DNA from: a virus
Virus record (IMG/VR): IMGVR_UViG_3300021091_000015
Length of the DNA stretch: 64,000 nucleotides
Strand: one strand, 5' to 3'
Part shown: positions 51,981 to 64,000 of the stretch, piece after piece
Position numbering within the stretch: position 1 is the first letter of the stretch
Layout: every line of letters begins with the position of its first letter
The notes under the pieces: generated by a model
Seen by the model: the letters and a program-made list of their open reading frames with translations, nothing else
What the model was told of the DNA's origin: nothing
The model's database searches: none
Position numbers and translations under genes: made by a program

Positions 51981-52556
51981 TGGAGGTGGCGGGTTTCGAC
52001 AATTATTGGACTATATCATCATCTCAACGAGATGTCGGACGCTAATGTGGTATTACGATAGAAGCGTCTATCACCCACTAGTCTCTGCACCTTCCTGTTC
52101 CTATCAGGCTTGGCTCAGGATTATCTAAAAGACTTCCCCTGAGTTCATCCGATTTTCGACATATCTCACGATATGAAGGGGCTCGATTAAAAACCCGCGT
52201 CTTGCTCGCAATACAATAAATGGACTACACGTTTAGGACAGTATTTTCTAATACTCCGAAATTCACAATTCCCTTATTTTAAAGTGGTTCGGTTTACTGA
52301 GAACTAATCTTCCACTTTGTTTCTTTTAGGATAGAAACCACACCCTACAAGGACTTCTGTTCCAAGGTTATCTGTCCGTCGACCCGTTAGTTACAACCAA
52401 TTAGGCTGCAACTTTAGAAGTCGCAAGAAGACCTGCTACTTCCATTTGGTTATAAACGTTGCCGTTTAAAATTTACCACCGTGGATTAAAGTCGTAGATG
52501 ACATCCGACTACGTGCCCATTTACCATATCAACGCCAATCAATTCCATACACCCCC
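51981..52556 (-). ncRNA. ssrA: tmRNA (intron-containing); tag (A)GNVYNQMEVAGLLATSKVAA at 52463-52401
   Basis: 5' GGGGGTG pairs with 3' CACCTCC-A, giving G3.U70; T-arm GCGGG-TTCGAAA-CCCGC after splicing; tag ORF ends AA-stop; TATCTTTG promoter at 52575-52582. Confidence 0.92.
52000..52192 (-). mobile_element. Group I intron (IC3-like, no ORF) in the tmRNA T-loop
   Basis: Core motifs AATCCTGAGCCAAG, GGTGCAGAGACT, GATATAGTCC; P1 GGGU/GCCC with U.G at the 5' splice site; terminal G; P10 UCGA. Confidence 0.9.
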
Positions 52557-52583
52557 ATAAGTCAAAGAACAAGACAAAGATAG

Positions 52584-53303: not shown

Positions 53304-53419
53304 ATTTGTAAATATATCAAAAAATATGTTTAAAAAAGAAGGGGTTAGTCACCCAACCCCTTTTTAGGACGACCGGTTTCTCGGTTCGACTCCACCACTT
53401 GGTTTAAAAAACCAAGAAA

Positions 53420-53866
53420 TTACTTTTCGTTAAGTAACTCCGTGATTGCTTCCAATTCCATTTGTACTCTTATCTCGGGTGAAATTAATGAATTCAAACG
53501 AGATTCAATTTCAGAAAGTTCTTTACGTTTTTCTTGAATTAAAATTTGATTTACTCTTGTTTGAAAATCATCTTTCCATTCATCGACAGTAAATCCTAAC
53601 CATGTGAATTTGTAGTTTACGCCAAGTTCTTTGGCTGCGGTTTCGGATTTATCTTTTCTTTCCATCAGAAATGCGTACATCTCTACGATTTTACGTACAT
53701 CTGTGATAGTTGGAATTGATGTCCTGTCATGTGCGGAATTCGCTGAATAACCAAAGTTACCGCTGGTTTTCCAACAAGGTCTTTCAGCTTTTTCAATTGC
53801 TAATTTTTTACTTTGAACTAAATCGAATAGTTCTTTTACTTTCTGGTCAGTTGTTTTTGTTGCCAT
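53420..53866 (-). CDS. Hypothetical coiled-coil protein
   Basis: Start moved to the ATG at 53866 (MATKTT), because the longer call overlaps RNA repeat 1. Confidence 0.65.
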   Translation of the reverse strand: MATKTTDQKVKELFDLVQSKKLAIEKAERPCWKTSGNFGYSANSAHDRTSIPTITDVRKIVEMYAFLMERKDKSETAAKELGVNYKFTWLGFTVDEWKDDFQTRVNQILIQEKRKELSEIESRLNSLISPEIRVQMELEAITELLNEK

Positions 53867-53907: not shown

Positions 53908-54326
53908 ATGGAAACTGTGTCAATAATTGTTTTGATTATCGGTCAAAGTAGAAATAACTGAACACATATCCATGTGTGTTTTAAAAGTGGAAAGACTACA
54001 ACTAATTTTTGATTTTTTGCTTAAAATTTAGAAGTAAGTTGATAGATAGCCACTCAATATGATTGACGGAAAAAGTACGGGTAATGTAACATATAATTGT
54101 TATAGAAGGGGGGACATTAGTCCCCTAGCAGAAGTAACCCAATACATAGCCGTCTAAGAAGTTATGTGGAAATTGTGTGTCTGGTTTTCGTATCTGATAG
54201 TTGTTTGTTAGAAGTAAGACGTTTGCATTGATACTTTTGTCACCGCTAAGGACCAAAACAGAACCACTCCGTGGTTTGATGTGATGGTCAGTTGACTATC
54301 CTCTCAATGGCTCACATAGCCACATA
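53908..54326 (-). ncRNA. Tandem array of four structured RNA repeats (53908-53973, 53986-54054, 54065-54154, 54163-54326)
   Basis: Each unit: stem-GG-CTAT-3bp-bulge-5bp-TACTTCT-variable loop-stems-TTT-CC, with compensatory stem changes; boxA-like GTTCTTTGA at 54334-54342. Confidence 0.75.
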
Positions 54327-54354
54327 TAATATTTCAAAGAACTAATGGGTGAGT

Positions 54355-56427
54355 TTAGACACCCATCAATTTACCTGTCTCTTCATAAGAGTAACAGAAG
54401 TCCTCGTACTTGAAATGTGTATCCACATTCTCGTCAAGGGTAACTTGTTTTCCTCGACCTTCTACGTGTAGAAGAATAAGGTCATAAACACTTACTTTTG
54501 GTAATTCAGCGTATTGTTGAATTACTTTAAAGGTGTTATTGAAGTCGCTCCTCGCGGTTACAAAACCACTTGAATCAATGTCCAACATGATGTACTCTTT
54601 GGTTTCTAAGTCAATAATTGCAATCAAAGTGTTTGACGACTCAGATTCTAATGATTGACAATTTGAAATTGTCTCAGGTAACCATGTCGTGTTTGATTCA
54701 GGATGTTCTCTCTCCATGATACCAAAGGATGTTTCAAGTGAACTTAAACTACCGCCATTGAAGTTTCTTACGTCAATAACCGCGTACTTGAATCCACGAT
54801 TTAATCCATCTTGAATATCGATGTCGATGTACTCCGCACAAGGACCCTGTCTATGTCTCACGTCCCCCGAGTGAACAGAGTTACCAACTCTCAAGTTACT
54901 GAAAGATAGTACTTCTGACACTTTTTCACCAACAAACGTAACACTTAAATCCAAGTCTTCAGAACCACGTTTATCCATCCAATGAATAAATGGTCTGATA
55001 ACTTTTGCATCGGGGTTATCGAGCGGAACTCGTTGACCTCTGATGGTAGGTTTAGTTGAGAAGTTCATACTTCTCATGTTGGTTGGTAAAGGAATCTTTT
55101 TTAATTCCTCATCAATCCAACAGTTACCTAAAGAATCCATTACCGAAAACTTATCTCTAAGAGTTTCGAATAATTTAGAGTGGATGGTTTCCACAATCTC
55201 TTTAGGGATTGCTTGTAGTGATGGTAATTCGGTACGTTTTCTCGCTCCTTTAATCATAACTGACCTATTTGTTTTAGGTTCAGTACGACCTTCAAAGTGA
55301 GTGTAAACCTCAAACAATACTTTGTTTGATGTACCTTTTACCGCTTCTCCGAATAATTTCATAATTGTTTCAATATCTTGTGGATATGTACGAACCAACC
55401 AATCTAATCGACGAGAGAATTCACCGGGTCTTTGAGACAATACTCTCAAACCATTCTCCAAACTTTTTTTGAATCCCTCATCTACAAGGGAGAACCAAGA
55501 TTTTACTTTCTCGTTTCTAATCTTGTTGAACGCATCAAAAGATTTAGGGAATTGGTTTTTATACTCACCCGGGTGTAAGATTTCACCTAAACGAACCCAT
55601 CGTTGGTCTCTTAAAACCATTTCTCTTGGGTCACAGTTTGTGTTCTCAAGTAAATTCAAGATGTACTTCCTCTCTTTACGAGTGAATTTCTTGAATTTAA
55701 ACTTTTCTCTTTCGGGATTTACTCCTTTATCGGTAGACCATCTGTTTAGTCTAATTTCCTTTTCAGGAACTTTAGGTAAACTAATGTCTCCACCTGAAAG
55801 ATGAACGGCTATTCTTAACACGTCGGTTGAAGTTTTTACTGGAAGTCCCTCGATTCCCATTCCCGCAAGTGTACACAAATTCTCTTTGAAAGGAATTGTG
55901 TCAGGGAAAATCAATGTTTCACCACTTGATACAAACCACTTAACAATCTCAAGGTCTTGGGGGGTTAATGATGTGTTGATTGACACTAAGTCAGTGAAAA
56001 TTTTTGAGAATCTATCAGAGGTACCATACTTAATCAAGTTGTATTTAATTTTTTCAAACTTGATTTCTTTTTCGTAAGTGTGGGTTGATGGTTCCCATTG
56101 ACCATTACTCCAATAATGCAAGATTGCGTTCATGTATAATTCGAAGTCGGACATAACCATCACTTCTTGTGGGAAATTCTTATATAGGGGTTGGTAATTA
56201 CGATTACCACCCATTACATTTTTCAAATGATTCAATACTTCATGATTGAAGTTTTGAATAAACGATAATTCTGATTTGGACAACGCGAAGAAAGCATCTT
56301 CGTCTAACATGTAACCCCATTGCATTAAGTGGGATTGAACGGTTGCTACCGCGATTCTATTATCTTGACCGTCGTTTGGTGAACAGACCAAACCTTTTTG
56401 AAACGCAACTAAATTCCTTGTTGTCAT
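54355..56427 (-). CDS. Large alpha-helical protein with C-terminal TerD-like domain
   Basis: C-terminal FIHW...DLDLS...HSGD...AEYID TerD-type motifs; N-terminal PLY..FP, FKEN, TDVLR, HPGEY, RPGEF; TATCTTTG at 56464-56471. Confidence 0.7.
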   Translation of the reverse strand: MTTRNLVAFQKGLVCSPNDGQDNRIAVATVQSHLMQWGYMLDEDAFFALSKSELSFIQNFNHEVLNHLKNVMGGNRNYQPLYKNFPQEVMVMSDFELYMNAILHYWSNGQWEPSTHTYEKEIKFEKIKYNLIKYGTSDRFSKIFTDLVSINTSLTPQDLEIVKWFVSSGETLIFPDTIPFKENLCTLAGMGIEGLPVKTSTDVLRIAVHLSGGDISLPKVPEKEIRLNRWSTDKGVNPEREKFKFKKFTRKERKYILNLLENTNCDPREMVLRDQRWVRLGEILHPGEYKNQFPKSFDAFNKIRNEKVKSWFSLVDEGFKKSLENGLRVLSQRPGEFSRRLDWLVRTYPQDIETIMKLFGEAVKGTSNKVLFEVYTHFEGRTEPKTNRSVMIKGARKRTELPSLQAIPKEIVETIHSKLFETLRDKFSVMDSLGNCWIDEELKKIPLPTNMRSMNFSTKPTIRGQRVPLDNPDAKVIRPFIHWMDKRGSEDLDLSVTFVGEKVSEVLSFSNLRVGNSVHSGDVRHRQGPCAEYIDIDIQDGLNRGFKYAVIDVRNFNGGSLSSLETSFGIMEREHPESNTTWLPETISNCQSLESESSNTLIAIIDLETKEYIMLDIDSSGFVTARSDFNNTFKVIQQYAELPKVSVYDLILLHVEGRGKQVTLDENVDTHFKYEDFCYSYEETGKLMGV

Positions 56428-58477: not shown

Positions 58478-58558
58478 ATCAATTTCACCAACATGTCAAA
58501 GAACAAATTCAGTTCAATCTGAACTATTGTACAATTATACAAAAAAAAGACTTAAAAT

Positions 58559-59590: not shown

Positions 59591-59935
59591 TTATTGAATC
59601 TGAAGTATTTTATTGTACGTATCGGTTATTTCAGCACAAGTTTCATAATCTTCGTTACCTTCAAAGAATGGTAGAATATCCCTTACTAAAACAATTGATT
59701 CTTTTCTTTTAAATTTTAACTCAGTTTCCCATTGTAAACCATTTATCTTAGCGCCTAACACTAAAATTACATTGTTTTTATCTTTTCTTTTAAGACTTTT
59801 AAAGAGGTTGACTAACGTCAGATAAATTAGTTCTTTGTTAACATTGTAAAAATCACCAAAGCTATTATAGTCCTGTTGGAGTATTAACTTTTTGATTACG
59901 GTATCGTTTGGTTTTTTAGGTAGTTTTGGTGGCAT
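59591..59935 (-). CDS. Hypothetical protein with C-terminal UVR-like motif
   Basis: NEDYETCAEI. Confidence 0.55.
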   Translation of the reverse strand: MPPKLPKKPNDTVIKKLILQQDYNSFGDFYNVNKELIYLTLVNLFKSLKRKDKNNVILVLGAKINGLQWETELKFKRKESIVLVRDILPFFEGNEDYETCAEITDTYNKILQIQ

Positions 59936-60018
59936 GTCGATTTAATTTTTGGTTCATCACAAATTTGACCAAAAAAATCGACCTATACAAATAAATGAAT
60001 AAATTGTTTAAAAAAAGT

Positions 60019-60429
60019 TTAAACCGTATGGTCCCACTGAACTCTCACACAGTTTTGGGGTAATCTGTGGATATGTCTATAATTATTGATGTACCCCATC
60101 ATATTAGCACTCCCAACCGCGTTGGCTGAATGTACAACCACATCAACAACAGGTTTTCCATCCAACCACTGATTAACTAACCATTTGGTACAGTCCATAC
60201 CTGTTTTCTCGGTGATATTGTCGTAGTTGATTTCGTAGTTTTTAACTACACCGTGTAACCATTCTTTCATTGCGCTATCACCCAAGTCGTGGTCTAAAGA
60301 AATCAACTCAACATTATCTAAACCAATCTCGGTTATCTTTTGAACCAATTCATCATAGGAACGAACCACTACCCAATTTTATTTATCAACGGGGGTTCTT
60401 ACATCATCTAAGTAAATTTTATATTTCAT
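60019..60429 (-). pseudogene. Cyclic-phosphate-processing receiver-domain protein with in-frame TAA at 60379-60381
   Basis: MKYKIYLDDVRTPVDK*NWVVVRSY...ISLDHDLG...TGMD...HSAN..G. Confidence 0.7.
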
Positions 60430-61465
60430 CTTTTTTAAATGGTTTTGTATATGGTGGGTATAATATTTTCCATATTATACTTTTATATTCTTTACCGTCC
60501 AACATATTAAATAATATTGATGGGTGGTTATATCTTTTTGCTAATTCAGCAAACTCGCGTCGGTTACATTCTTTTTGATGTGCCTCAAAATAAGTGTTTC
60601 GTATTTTATTGAATATCCATTGATATTCCTTCTCAATATTTTCATAACGAACCACAAAATCTTTAACAGTTTCTTTCACCCAACTGTTAAACTCATCAGG
60701 TACTTTTTCAAGTAACTCATCAAATGATTTATCTTCTTTAAGGTATTCCCAAATATCTCTACTTGACACATTGGTTAAAATTTTATGTAATCGAACATAC
60801 TCCTCAAATTTAATTTTCATTCTAAAATTTGATGGGTAAAATCTTACAACAAAACCTTCACTGTTTGATGTATTAAGTTTCTTATATGTGTCAAATGTTT
60901 CTTTATTGAAAGTTACCATTGTGCTTCCAACAACGTCTTCTTCCAAAATACCTGATGAATTAAAAATTGCACATGCGGTGTACCAGTTCAATTCACCTTC
61001 AGGGGTTGTTACAGAAAGGAATGTGATTTTTTCACAATTATAATTTACAACAATTCTATTCTCAGGATAAATAATTTCACATAGGTATGTAACCTCTTTT
61101 ACAAAATTATTTAAATTGTATTTTGATTTTAAAATTTCAAAACCACGGATAGACTGTTCAGAAGTAAATGAACCTCTTGTTGACATAATCCATTCCCCAT
61201 CGTAAAAGAATAGAATACCAAGAGAACCATCCATTTTATCTTGAATGTGAACATATTCACTGTCCCATGGAATTAAGTCCTTATCAATAACTTCCTCATA
61301 GTTAAAGAACTTACCAAACGGTTCTGCAATTACATCGCCTTTTGAATTGGTAACGAGTCCACGACATTGCATAGTAATATCGTCCCACAAAGATTCGTAT
61401 TGTACTCTTGGGGTATAATTCCATATGCACAAATCTTTTGTGGGGTGAGTTTGTTTTATTAACAA
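60419..61465 (-). CDS. RNA ligase, T4 Rnl1-like (true start may be near 61501)
   Basis: CRGL, KFFN, KMDGSLG (motif I), EII, EGFVV, RMKIK. Confidence 0.85.
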   Translation of the reverse strand: MLIKQTHPTKDLCIWNYTPRVQYESLWDDITMQCRGLVTNSKGDVIAEPFGKFFNYEEVIDKDLIPWDSEYVHIQDKMDGSLGILFFYDGEWIMSTRGSFTSEQSIRGFEILKSKYNLNNFVKEVTYLCEIIYPENRIVVNYNCEKITFLSVTTPEGELNWYTACAIFNSSGILEEDVVGSTMVTFNKETFDTYKKLNTSNSEGFVVRFYPSNFRMKIKFEEYVRLHKILTNVSSRDIWEYLKEDKSFDELLEKVPDEFNSWVKETVKDFVVRYENIEKEYQWIFNKIRNTYFEAHQKECNRREFAELAKRYNHPSILFNMLDGKEYKSIIWKILYPPYTKPFKKDEI

Positions 61466-61497
61466 ACCATCCTCATGGTATTTTTGTAACCTAACTA

Positions 61498-61911
61498 TCA
61501 GAGTTTTACTTCAAAACGATTTTTCATAATCTCTAATTTGTCAGAGGGTACTCCGTGGACATTTTCACCACCGTGTCTGTTTTCAACAACAATAGTGTGA
61601 ATTCGATATCCGTATCTTTTCGCCATTTCAAAATATGGTTCCATTTCCCATTCTTGGGTAAACGTATTTGACACAACAACTCTTACGACGCTATTCATCA
61701 TCAAATTTGCACACCTTTGTTGGCAGTCGTTATGAGCTTCCCTTAATTTTATTGGGTCAAAATTGTAGTTACCTTCCTTGTCTGTAAAGAAATCATCCGC
61801 CGACAATGGTTTCATTGGATTATTTGGGGTATAAAGAATGACCTCACCTAAAGTGGATTTACCCGAGCCGGGTAAACCCCTAACTAATATCAAATCTTTT
61901 GTATATTCCAT
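61498..61911 (-). CDS. Polynucleotide-kinase-like P-loop protein (AAA_33)
   Basis: RGLPGSGKST, SADD, SNT, HGVP; TATATTTG at 61930-61937. Confidence 0.8.
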   Translation of the reverse strand: MEYTKDLILVRGLPGSGKSTLGEVILYTPNNPMKPLSADDFFTDKEGNYNFDPIKLREAHNDCQQRCANLMMNSVVRVVVSNTFTQEWEMEPYFEMAKRYGYRIHTIVVENRHGGENVHGVPSDKLEIMKNRFEVKL

Positions 61912-61965
61912 GGTAAAATAGATTTATCGCAAATATAAATAATAATTTTTAGAATACCAAAAAAA

Positions 61966-62062
61966 TAAAAACCCCCAACAGAGAGTCGGGGGTTTGTGGT
62001 CATTTTGTGGTTTCAACACCACAGACTATAAAACGAAAGGAAATCGGCAAAGATATCCTGTG
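61966..62062 (-). ncRNA. Candidate sRNA B
   Basis: Minus-strand ATATTTAT at 62068-62075; TGTGGT/ACCACA hairpin; terminator CCCCCGAC/GTTGGGGG plus T tract; no ORF. Confidence 0.5.
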
Positions 62063-62102
62063 TGAATATAAATATATATGTTTTTTTAAAAAGTATGAAT
62101 AT

Positions 62103-64000
62103 TTACACCCTTTTTTTAAAAATTTTTATTTCACCGTCTTTAAATTTTAAATTAATGGAATCATTCTCCTTAATTTCGCCTTTTAAGATTGAATCACTTA
62201 AATAATCTTCACACATATTTTGGATGATTCTTTTAACTGGTCTTGCACCAAAATCTTCTTGAATATTAAGTTCCGATATTCTCTCCACAATTGTCTTATC
62301 AAAAGAAACTTTATAATTTTTTTCTTTTAATCTAACAGACAACTTATTTAATTCAATTTCAATAATCTTTTTAATTACATCTTTATCTAACGAATTAAAA
62401 CTGATTATGTCGTCTACTCGATTCAAAAACTCAGGGTTAAAGTGTTGTTTTAATGATTTTTGAACGATTGATTTTTTAACCTCAAAGTTTTGTGATTCTG
62501 AAGATGATGAACTAAAACCAACACCCTTACCAAATTCAGATACTTTTTTTGCACCAATATTGGATGTCATGATTACTATAGTGTTTGTAAAGTTTACTTT
62601 TCTTCCAAACGAATCGGTTAAATGTCCTTCATCCAAAATTTGAAGTAAGATATTGAAAACGTCTTTGTGTGCTTTTTCAACCTCATCGAACAATACCACA
62701 GAAAATGGATTATTTTTAATCTTCTCAGTAAGTTGGCCTCCTTCATCATAACCAACATAACCTGGAGGTGAACCAATTAATTTTGCCACGTTGTGTTTTT
62801 CCATGTATTCACTCATATCAACACGAATTACTTTTTCGGAGTCTCCGAAAAGTAGTTCAGCAATCGATTTTGCGAGATATGTTTTACCAACACCAGTTGA
62901 ACCTAAAAATATAAAAGAACCTATTGGTTTATTTGTATCTTTAATACCAACCCTATTTCTTCTAATTGATTTGGAAATTATTGAAATAGCCTCGTCTTGA
63001 CCAATTACTTTAGATTTTAATTTTTCTTCTAAGTTCAAAAGATTTGCGGTCTCTGTATCATCAATCTTAGAGAGAGGTACACCTGTAATTTGTGAAATCA
63101 TTTCATATACATCTGCAACCGTTACGGGTGTTTTATTGTCTTTTTGTTTGTCTAACCACTTCTTTTTTTCATCATTTAATTTACTCAGTAATTTTCTTTC
63201 TTCATCTCTTAATTTAGCCGCTTGTTCATAGTTTTGACTTTTTACAACTTCTATCTTCCTATTTTTTAAATCATCAGATTCCTTTTTTAGTTTTTCAATA
63301 ATCTCAGGAATTTTGGTATTTATTTTTTTTTCTGAACCCAATTCATCCATCACGTCAATTGCTTTATCGGGAAACTGACGGTCTGTGATAAATCTTGATG
63401 ACAAATTCACGATAGTTTCAAAAACCTCCGGTTCATAAAATACTTTGTGAAAATTTTGATATGAATCTTTTAAATTTTTTAAAATTTGAACTGTTTCTTC
63501 CTTACTTGGTTCTTTCAAAATTATTTTTTGAAATCTTCTAACTAATGCACCATCTTTCTCGATGTGTTTTTTAAATTCATCAAATGTTGTCGCCCCAATA
63601 CATTGAATTTCTCCTCGAGCTAATGCGGGTTTCATAATATTAGCGGCGTCCATTGACCCGCTAGCGTTGCCAGCACCAACCATTGTGTGTATTTCATCAA
63701 TAAACACAATTACATTAGGTTCATTCTGTATTTCGTTTAGAACTGCTTTAATACGTTCTTCAAACTGACCTCTGTATTTTGTACCAGCCACCAAAGATGT
63801 TAAATCTAATGATACAACTCGTTTGTCTAAAAGATTTGATGGACAATCTCCTTTTACAATCATCTGAGCGAGTTTCTCAACTAAAGCCGATTTACCCACA
63901 CCCGCGTCACCAATTATCACTACGTTGTTTTTCTTTTTTCTAGATAATATCTGTGCAATTCTTTTAACCTCACCATCTCTCCCAATTATTGGGTCAATTT
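62103..64000 (-). CDS. clpC: ClpC-type AAA+ unfoldase, 5'-truncated by the window edge
   Basis: DPIIGR, GDAGVGKS, GTKYRGQFEER, UVR segment QNYEQAAKLRD, GSTGVGKT, GARP; frame is open to the window end. Confidence 0.92.
   Translation of the reverse strand, partial: IDPIIGRDGEVKRIAQILSRKKKNNVVIIGDAGVGKSALVEKLAQMIVKGDCPSNLLDKRVVSLDLTSLVAGTKYRGQFEERIKAVLNEIQNEPNVIVFIDEIHTMVGAGNASGSMDAANIMKPALARGEIQCIGATTFDEFKKHIEKDGALVRRFQKIILKEPSKEETVQILKNLKDSYQNFHKVFYEPEVFETIVNLSSRFITDRQFPDKAIDVMDELGSEKKINTKIPEIIEKLKKESDDLKNRKIEVVKSQNYEQAAKLRDEERKLLSKLNDEKKKWLDKQKDNKTPVTVADVYEMISQITGVPLSKIDDTETANLLNLEEKLKSKVIGQDEAISIISKSIRRNRVGIKDTNKPIGSFIFLGSTGVGKTYLAKSIAELLFGDSEKVIRVDMSEYMEKHNVAKLIGSPPGYVGYDEGGQLTEKIKNNPFSVVLFDEVEKAHKDVFNILLQILDEGHLTDSFGRKVNFTNTIVIMTSNIGAKKVSEFGKGVGFSSSSSESQNFEVKKSIVQKSLKQHFNPEFLNRVDDIISFNSLDKDVIKKIIEIELNKLSVRLKEKNYKVSFDKTIVERISELNIQEDFGARPVKRIIQNMCEDYLSDSILKGEIKENDSINLKFKDGEIKIFKKRV

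Follow-up and report, generated by a model that had tools for sequence, protein, structure and literature searches.

A TerD-domain protein encoded beside an array of structured RNAs in a phage genome: a probable relative of the Ro60/Y RNA particle

The locus

We have analyzed a stretch of 64,000 nucleotides (nt) from the IMG/VR virus record IMGVR_UViG_3300021091_000015, which we will call the window. Its minus strand contains a gene for a protein of 690 amino acids (aa), at positions 54355..56427, followed by an array of four tandem RNA units (53908-54326), separated by spacers of 8–12 nt. The protein is all-helical up to about residue 470, followed by a TerD beta-sandwich (about 473–639) and by C-terminal helices. 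Only 28 nt separate the TAA stop codon (54357-54355) of the open reading frame (ORF) from the array; an earlier note on this DNA, made from the sequence alone, had given this distance as about 30 nt. The stop codon itself is spanned by a hairpin of seven base pairs (bp). As discussed below, we regard this RNA–protein pair as a probable relative of the Ro60/Y RNA particle that has so far gone undescribed.

The four units are found on the minus strand with the common architecture that the earlier note had described, and minimum free energy folding gives the same handle for each of them. This handle starts with a terminal stem (S1) ending in GG/CC, followed by an internal loop, in which CUAU (5' side) is opposite NNUUU (3' side), and by a 3-bp stem (S2). 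A bulge of a single nucleotide comes next, then a 5-bp stem (S3), the unpaired sequence UUACUUCU(A) and finally a variable part, which we will call the payload. The letters of U1 deviate from this scheme, with AUAU in the loop and UUAUUUCU in place of UUACUUCU. U1 (53908..53973, 66 nt) and U2 (53986..54054, 69 nt) are minimal units: The first has a short AU-rich loop, the second an AU-rich apical loop of about 25 nt. U3 (54065..54154, 90 nt) carries two hairpins in its apical region, and in U4 (54163..54326, 164 nt) the bulge that separates S2 from S3 takes up the payload, an extended hairpin of 88 nt.

No Rfam family was matched by the array, either at the gathering threshold or at an expectation value (E) ≤ 10, YrlA (RF02553) included. 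The earlier note had recognized no named family for the motif, and Rfam in fact has none for these RNAs. No cloverleaf of transfer RNA (tRNA) was called in 53908-54326 by ARAGORN or by Rfam RF00005, and nothing similar to the array was found by blastn in 50,697 phage records. Two other candidates were discarded. The sequence CUUCUAA resembles the loop of tRNA-Arg(UCU), but it lacks a closing stem, so that mimicry of an anticodon loop was rejected. An RNA anti-CRISPR, similar to CRISPR repeats, was also rejected, in view of the excessive length of the units and of their three helices. We consider it rather probable that each of the four units encodes a small, stable non-coding RNA, and that these RNAs make up a single family with a constant handle and a variable payload, which is part of the wider reading given in the Discussion.

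A constant scaffold with a variable segment is also the layout of guide RNAs, and the loops do differ between units. The variable loops might thus be guides, with the protein as an RNA-guided effector directed against complementary nucleic acids. On the other hand, the loops, which are short and AU-rich, show little conservation even among close orthologs; many payloads are folded domains, not single strands; and no nuclease or other catalytic domain has been found in the protein. We regard a guide function as very improbable.

Covariation of the helices

The motif was first searched with a strict descriptor of sequence and structure, in the window and in related IMG/VR contigs. In the window it is only found in the array. 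In ten related contigs it lies directly 3' of the homologous gene, with different stem sequences. In 15 short units, 97.9% of the cells pair, with double changes at 11 of the 13 pairs. These units were used to build a covariance model, R1, which detects U1–U3 in the window at E values of 1e-9 to 1e-17 (U1: 63.3 bits, E 1e-13; U2: 74.8 bits, E 9e-17; U3: 47.7 bits, E 1.5e-9), without any other match. U4 escapes detection because of the 88-nt element inserted at its bulge. The insert folds as a long hairpin in 11 orthologs, and 17 of the 41 pairs in its consensus fold show compensatory change.

A larger set of 45 units was collected with R1 from the window and 12 related contigs. Pairing is found in 96.1% of the cells, and it falls to 35–50% when the 3' partner is slid by 1–3 columns. 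Again 11 of the 13 pairs are doubly changed, in 177 cells. Both sets were selected with pairing in mind, and a test free of this circularity was therefore added, in which the choice of units depended solely on unpaired anchors (GGCYAY, 8 nt, TTACTTCT, and the TTYCC that comes next). In the 32 distinct units obtained in this way, 88.7% of the S2/S3 positions pair. When the 3' strands are shuffled between units (1000 shuffles), the value is 59.1 ± 2.5%, with a maximum of 67.6%. These 32 units contain 16 different S2 sequences and 18 different S3 sequences. The covariation of the helices, which the earlier note had claimed from the four units, is thus borne out in a much wider set.

Tandem palindromic units in intergenic DNA might also correspond to a repeated selfish or structural DNA element without any RNA function, such as repetitive extragenic palindromic (REP) sequences or miniature inverted-repeat transposable elements (MITE). 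Nevertheless, the compensatory changes preserve RNA-type pairs, including G-U, on one strand only, and the unpaired motifs are conserved. The position of the units, moreover, is fixed beside one gene across phyla, without copies elsewhere, as the next section describes. An element of this kind is disfavored, and we give it a nearly negligible probability.

Linkage between the RNA units and the protein gene

R1 was run on both strands of the window and of 21 loci, 250 kb in all. In all 19 related contigs having downstream DNA, from three to seven matches are found just 3' of the gene for the homologous protein, on the same strand. No match away from this gene appears in those 250 kb. Five whole phage records, with sizes of 135–385 kb, were also scanned at E ≤ 0.01. 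Four of them have matches, each adjoining the gene: two 310-kb relatives, one of which is 100% complete and has terminal repeats, Xanthomonas phage XacN1 (385 kb), and Rhodococcus phage Weasels2 (135 kb). Ruegeria phage RpAliso has no R1 match at this threshold; with the filters off, a single unit of 26.9 bits is detected upstream of the gene.

The position of the units varies in distant phages: They are placed upstream of the gene in XacN1, Xoo-sp13, and RpAliso, and downstream in Weasels2. Lactobacillus phage LpeD has weak R1 matches upstream of its homolog. Units also adjoin homologs in a human-gut phage contig and in the metagenome contigs L028-L031; in these loci, as in Xoo-sp13 and LpeD, the homologs have 23–33% identity. 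The linkage is found in phages of Actinobacteria, Proteobacteria, and Firmicutes, and also in chromosomes of Bacteroidota. It is weaker in distant phages and in bacterial chromosomes than in the 19 related contigs; the pairing is still seen at 21–33% protein identity. The search with the covariance model near homologs of the protein confirms that tight linkage between the RNA and protein genes survives to about 25% protein identity.

The 690 amino acid protein

The protein belongs to a large family: At E ≤ 0.001, its members include 2410 sequences that each represent a cluster of 50% identity. PHROGs assigns it to phrog_33734, of unknown function. Pfam finds no family in the 690 aa protein, and only one weak TerD match in the protein together with 42 relatives. 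An AlphaFold2 model obtained with these 42 relatives has a predicted local distance difference test (pLDDT) of 91.3 and a predicted template modeling score (pTM) of 0.87, and the protein contains the TerD (PF02342) beta-sandwich fold. A profile search of PDB sequences also finds TerD only, at E 0.48. Foldseek gives no match for the helical domain. Among the structural matches of the helical domain, the three Ro60 structures have by far the greatest number of aligned residues, but the likeness of fold is weak.

Like Ro60, the protein has a large helical domain followed by a C-terminal domain of a metal-binding type. The differences are also clear. The sequence gives no signal of TROVE, and TerD stands at the C-terminal end in place of the von Willebrand A (vWA) domain with a metal site which is characteristic of Ro60. 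TerD might perhaps be a metal-dependent counterpart of vWA. The TerD proteins of tellurite-resistance (Ter) systems (PDB 2qz7, 2kxt, 3ibz) are a different case: Here the Ter operon partners are absent, and TerD is one domain of a 690 aa protein with a helical domain of 470 residues, encoded among RNA and RNA-repair genes.

Comparison with Y RNAs

Bacterial Y RNAs contain a Ro-binding stem and a tRNA-like module, and shorter Y RNAs without this module also exist (Chen et al. 2014, PMC4201824). In phages, Thermus phage phiLo has a Ro60 with the RNAs Yrl1/Yrl2 (PMC12135203).

The units that we have analyzed resemble these RNAs in several respects. One to several small RNA genes adjoin the protein gene on its strand in both cases, and the RNAs are modular, with a bulged terminal stem as handle and a variable or tRNA-like effector module. 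As in YrlA, the stem is formed by the 5' and 3' ends of the RNA (S1, S2, and S3 covary), and a YUAY motif follows its 5' strand: UUAC is found directly 3' of S3 in nearly all units. The units are also encoded, like YrlA, within a few kb of the partner gene and on the same strand, although the partner is the TerD protein instead of a TROVE protein. On the other hand, the Ro-binding motif GNCGAAN0-1G of Y RNAs is absent: The window units have GGCUAUG in its place, within the GGCUAU/NNUUU handle loop. The arrays also differ from Y RNA loci in having up to seven units, mostly without a tRNA-like part.

The canonical Y RNAs of Bacteroidota are closer. They contain the sequence G-Y-Y-G-U-A-G, followed by a stem strand of 7–8 nt and by UUACUUCG, that is, (U/A)UACUUCG. 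The window units contain GGCUAUG, then 7 nt, then UUACUUCU, so that a UUACUUC junction is common to both. The fold of one canonical Bacteroidota Y RNA combines a 5' loop of 4 nt and a 3' loop rich in U with a 3-bp stem, one unpaired U, and a 4-bp stem; the window units share this layout. This comparison of layouts, made with the sequences and minimum free energy folds of a handful of RNAs, suggests that both RNA families may be related.

A second likeness is found in the payloads. In related contigs, some sister units bear the T arm of a tRNA (GGTTCGAATCC), followed by an acceptor-like hairpin. A unit of Weasels2 has the complete module, with its T arm, acceptor-like hairpin, and D arm permuted as is typical of YrlA. 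It matches positions 23-86 of the Rfam YrlA model with 26.4 bits, the best RF02553 score in any sister locus; the threshold is 69, and the match covers the tRNA-like part only. The likeness to Ro60/Y RNA drawn in the earlier note is supported by such sister units and by the UUACUUC junction, as well as by the operons described in the next section.

Chimeras that resemble tRNAs are found inside several arrays (L007:6705-6827, L013:6651-6777, L028:8749-8810, and L054:10930-11050, minus strand). Those of L007 and L013 stand at the end of the array, and Rfam scores both as long tRNAs (41–56 bits), with no ARAGORN call. A handle of the GGCUAU...UUACUUCUA type replaces the anticodon arm in these chimeras, and the acceptor, D, and T arms are normal in those of L007 and L054.

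These tRNA-like parts might suggest that the RNAs are tRNA-like or structured decoys, independent of the 690 aa protein, which soak up host anticodon nucleases, for example, or enzymes that modify or process tRNAs. The protein would then merely process, stabilize or chaperone the RNAs, or have a separate function. Mimics of the T, D, and acceptor arms do occur in sister units, the arrays are found within tRNA gene clusters, and they share a leader motif with tRNA genes and with genes for transfer-messenger RNA (tmRNA). Nevertheless, the constant handle is retained even by minimal units without any tRNA-like part, and it accompanies the protein gene in different phyla, while no other copies exist in whole phage genomes. 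This distribution is hard to account for unless the protein recognizes the handle. Decoys independent of the protein are, in our opinion, unlikely.

Both systems can be clearly separated by their RNAs. At canonical TROVE loci of Bacteroidota, the adjoining RNAs match YrlA or Deinococcus-type Y RNA models, with 28–47 bits, and R1 has no match better than E 0.4. The Rfam YrlA model, in turn, misses the RNAs of the TerD-type loci. No TROVE gene is found in the five TerD-type phage records, although control genomes do score. In view of this reciprocal absence, each protein family has its own RNA.

Chromosomal loci in Bacteroidota

A full-length homolog of the protein is found in 10 of the 401 Bacteroidota genomes sampled. 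Seven of these homologs form a chromosomal subfamily of about 750 aa, and weak R1 matches are found upstream of its genes, on the same strand. For example, a 4.8-Mb contig contains, in this order, a divergent WYL/WCX regulator, RNA units (including a tRNA-like chimera), a homolog of 746 aa, RtcB, and TatD. RtcB is found next to five chromosomal loci of the TerD type.

Canonical TROVE genes of the same phylum are flanked by WYL homologs with 50–57% identity, and one of them also adjoins RtcB. In bacteria, the pair is thus linked to RtcB and a WYL-type regulator, as Ro60/Y RNA is; in phages, both are linked to genes for tRNA and RNA repair. Since these WYL and RtcB neighbors are common to both, the TerD-type pair fills the place of Ro60/Y RNA in RNA-repair operons. 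No genome combines the chromosomal form of about 750 aa with a TROVE match at E ≤ 1e-10, in what is a small overlap between two samples.

Homologous WYL/WCX regulators are found in divergent orientation in L035-L039 and L054-L055, beside either canonical Ro60 with Y RNAs or the TerD-type pair. One genome, G003, carries a phage-like copy of the protein and has a weak TROVE match of 24 bits.

Gene neighborhood and leader motif

The gene and the array are part of a block on one strand, which contains a ClpB-like ATPase, an AAA_33 kinase, an RNA ligase, a cyclic-phosphate receiver protein, the tRNAs, an RNase H-like protein (PF04308), the 690 aa gene, the array, an ORF of 148 aa, a metallophosphoesterase, and a tmRNA with a group I intron. 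All the RNA-related genes named in the earlier note are present in it. The RNA-repair set upstream of the tRNAs (59591-63920, minus strand) includes the double AAA ATPase (605 aa), the kinase (137 aa), the RNA ligase (348 aa, a weak PF09414 match), and the PF20274 cyclic-phosphate-processing receiver protein (116 aa). There are four tRNAs (Leu, Arg, Met, and Gly). The locus resembles the tRNA clusters with small stable RNAs of other phages in its tRNA/tmRNA block, its equally tight packing, and its common leader motif; it differs from them because the units are not tRNAs and have a conserved handle of their own and a dedicated partner gene.

The leader motif is the 9-mer GTTCTTTGA, which is found 8 nt before U4 (54334..54342). 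Its exact copies in the window are three, all on the minus strand: The other two precede tRNA-Leu (58496-58504) and the tmRNA (52562-52570). In relatives, it is found before the first unit of the array and usually also before the tmRNA and the tRNA-Leu cluster, with a second copy inside longer arrays. In these relatives it is often located 3' of a TAnnTTTG box, which we take to be the -7 promoter element of Bacteroidota, so that this box points to a promoter and a host of Bacteroidota type. The earlier note had seen the same motif before the array, the tmRNA, and tRNA-Leu, and had called it boxA-like; the three positions are correct, but the boxA label finds no support. A -35 box was discarded, since the motif is too near the start of the unit. 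It is probably a shared leader or promoter-proximal element in the transcripts of stable RNAs.

The 148 aa ORF (53420..53866, minus strand) is found directly after the array and corresponds to phrog_2574, of unknown function. Its homologs are located 3' of the array in L002-L020 and L028, with 55–95% identity; none was found in distant loci at E ≤ 1e-3. This protein is a possible third component of the system, a partner limited to this phage clade.

Other RNA genes are found in the same region. The tmRNA gene of the window (52171-52556, minus strand) scores 35 bits (E 3e-12), below the Rfam threshold, and is called neither by ARAGORN nor by the Rfam gathering run. It is interrupted near its 3' end by the group I intron (51990-52202, 68.8 bits). 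Among the relatives, L004 has an uninterrupted tmRNA of 98 bits and L007 has the version with an intron. The complete 310-kb relative contains a full-length GOLLD RNA (L013:8272-8670, 316 bits), about 1.6 kb downstream of the array. Just upstream of the 690 aa gene, L004 (3813-3885) and L007 (3834-3908) have a tRNA with the amber-reading anticodon CTA, labeled Pyl by ARAGORN, which may be a sign of stop-codon suppression or recoding in these phages. The window has tRNA-Gly(GCC) in this position.

Discussion

On balance, we incline to the view that the 690 aa protein and the RNA units form a Ro60-like ribonucleoprotein, with TerD replacing vWA, which takes part in the surveillance or repair of tRNA and other RNAs; its RNA binding, processing, and function are what we infer from the comparisons given above. 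This reading draws on the fold and covariation of the units, their linkage to the gene, the orthogonality of both RNA families, the shared operon slot, the TerD fold, and the tRNA-like payloads of sister units. A precursor starting near the GTTCTTTGA leader, or running on from the protein gene, would probably be cut into unit RNAs. The constant handle would be bound by the helical and TerD protein, which would act as a platform for RNA handling, as in Ro60/Y RNA particles. The payload would tether or gate the partners: tRNA-recognizing enzymes, nucleases, or the neighboring ligase, kinase, and phosphoesterase. The likely purpose would be the surveillance, protection or repair of tRNA, tmRNA or ribosomal RNA during infection.

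Several results weigh against a Ro60-like particle. TROVE (PF05731) has no Pfam match at E ≤ 10 in any of the 42 members of the family, and an hhalign comparison of the 42-member alignment with nine Bacteroidota Ro60/TROVE sequences gives a probability of 0.2%. None of the four units in the window has the tRNA-like module (T arm, acceptor-like hairpin, and D arm). Salicola phage SCTP-2 contains a homolog of the protein, and no unit was detected in it. Finally, there is no strong terminator-like site between the gene, the array, and the next ORF.

This last result also bears on a different explanation. Without a strong terminator between gene, array, and next ORF, a cis role on one long messenger RNA (mRNA) stays a rival: The units would be parts of the mRNA of the protein itself, structures in its untranslated regions for autoregulation, stabilization or processing. 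The only terminator-like site between the gene and the array is a weak one within U4; farther downstream, beyond the array, the sole hairpin with a U run on this strand that resembles an intrinsic terminator is found at 53339..53362. The units always adjoin the gene and share its strand. They follow the gene in this clade and precede it in XacN1, Xoo-sp13, RpAliso, LpeD, and the bacterial operons. On the other hand, different units are present at each locus, from three to seven in number, and their payloads are large and independent; arrays also contain true tRNA genes, tRNA-like chimeras, and a second leader motif, and the units are packed at distances of 8–12 nt, as in tRNA clusters. We consider a cis-acting role quite unlikely.

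Neither the RNAs nor the protein have a function in Rfam 15, Pfam or PHROGs. In the literature that we have searched on TerD with YrlA, Y RNA, TROVE or structured phage RNAs, the pair is undescribed, although a prior ROT/TROVE classification may exist beyond it. The text of a 2023 catalog of about 10,000 phage structured RNAs does not discuss the pair (PMC10690425).

Two families come to notice in this analysis: phrog_33734, which is large and has no known function, and a family of RNAs that Rfam lacks. Among particles of this type, Ro60/Y RNA alone has, to our knowledge, been studied well, and its role in bacteria is unclear. A parallel system, with a different set of domains, a handle of its own, and many natural variants of the payload, would give independent leverage on the bacterial function of Ro60/Y RNA. 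Since several phages that have it can be cultivated (Weasels2 of Rhodococcus, XacN1 and Xoo-sp13 of Xanthomonas, and RpAliso of Ruegeria), and since it also adjoins RtcB in Bacteroidota chromosomes, it is directly testable.

A broader proposal, which may equally well prove right or wrong, is that these loci represent a second widespread family of Ro-like ribonucleoproteins, whose connection to TROVE escapes every sequence method. A helical platform with TerD would bind a dedicated handle, and the payloads of this handle could be exchanged for one another (tRNA mimics, long hairpins, and also bare loops), each steering the same protein to a different RNA or enzyme partner. In jumbo phages, the particle would shield or repair the phage tRNAs and tmRNA against RNA-cleaving defenses of the host; in Bacteroidota, it would have displaced Ro60/Y RNA in RtcB operons controlled by WYL regulators. 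Our results suggest that phages carry RNA-quality-control particles alongside their tRNA and RNA-repair genes.

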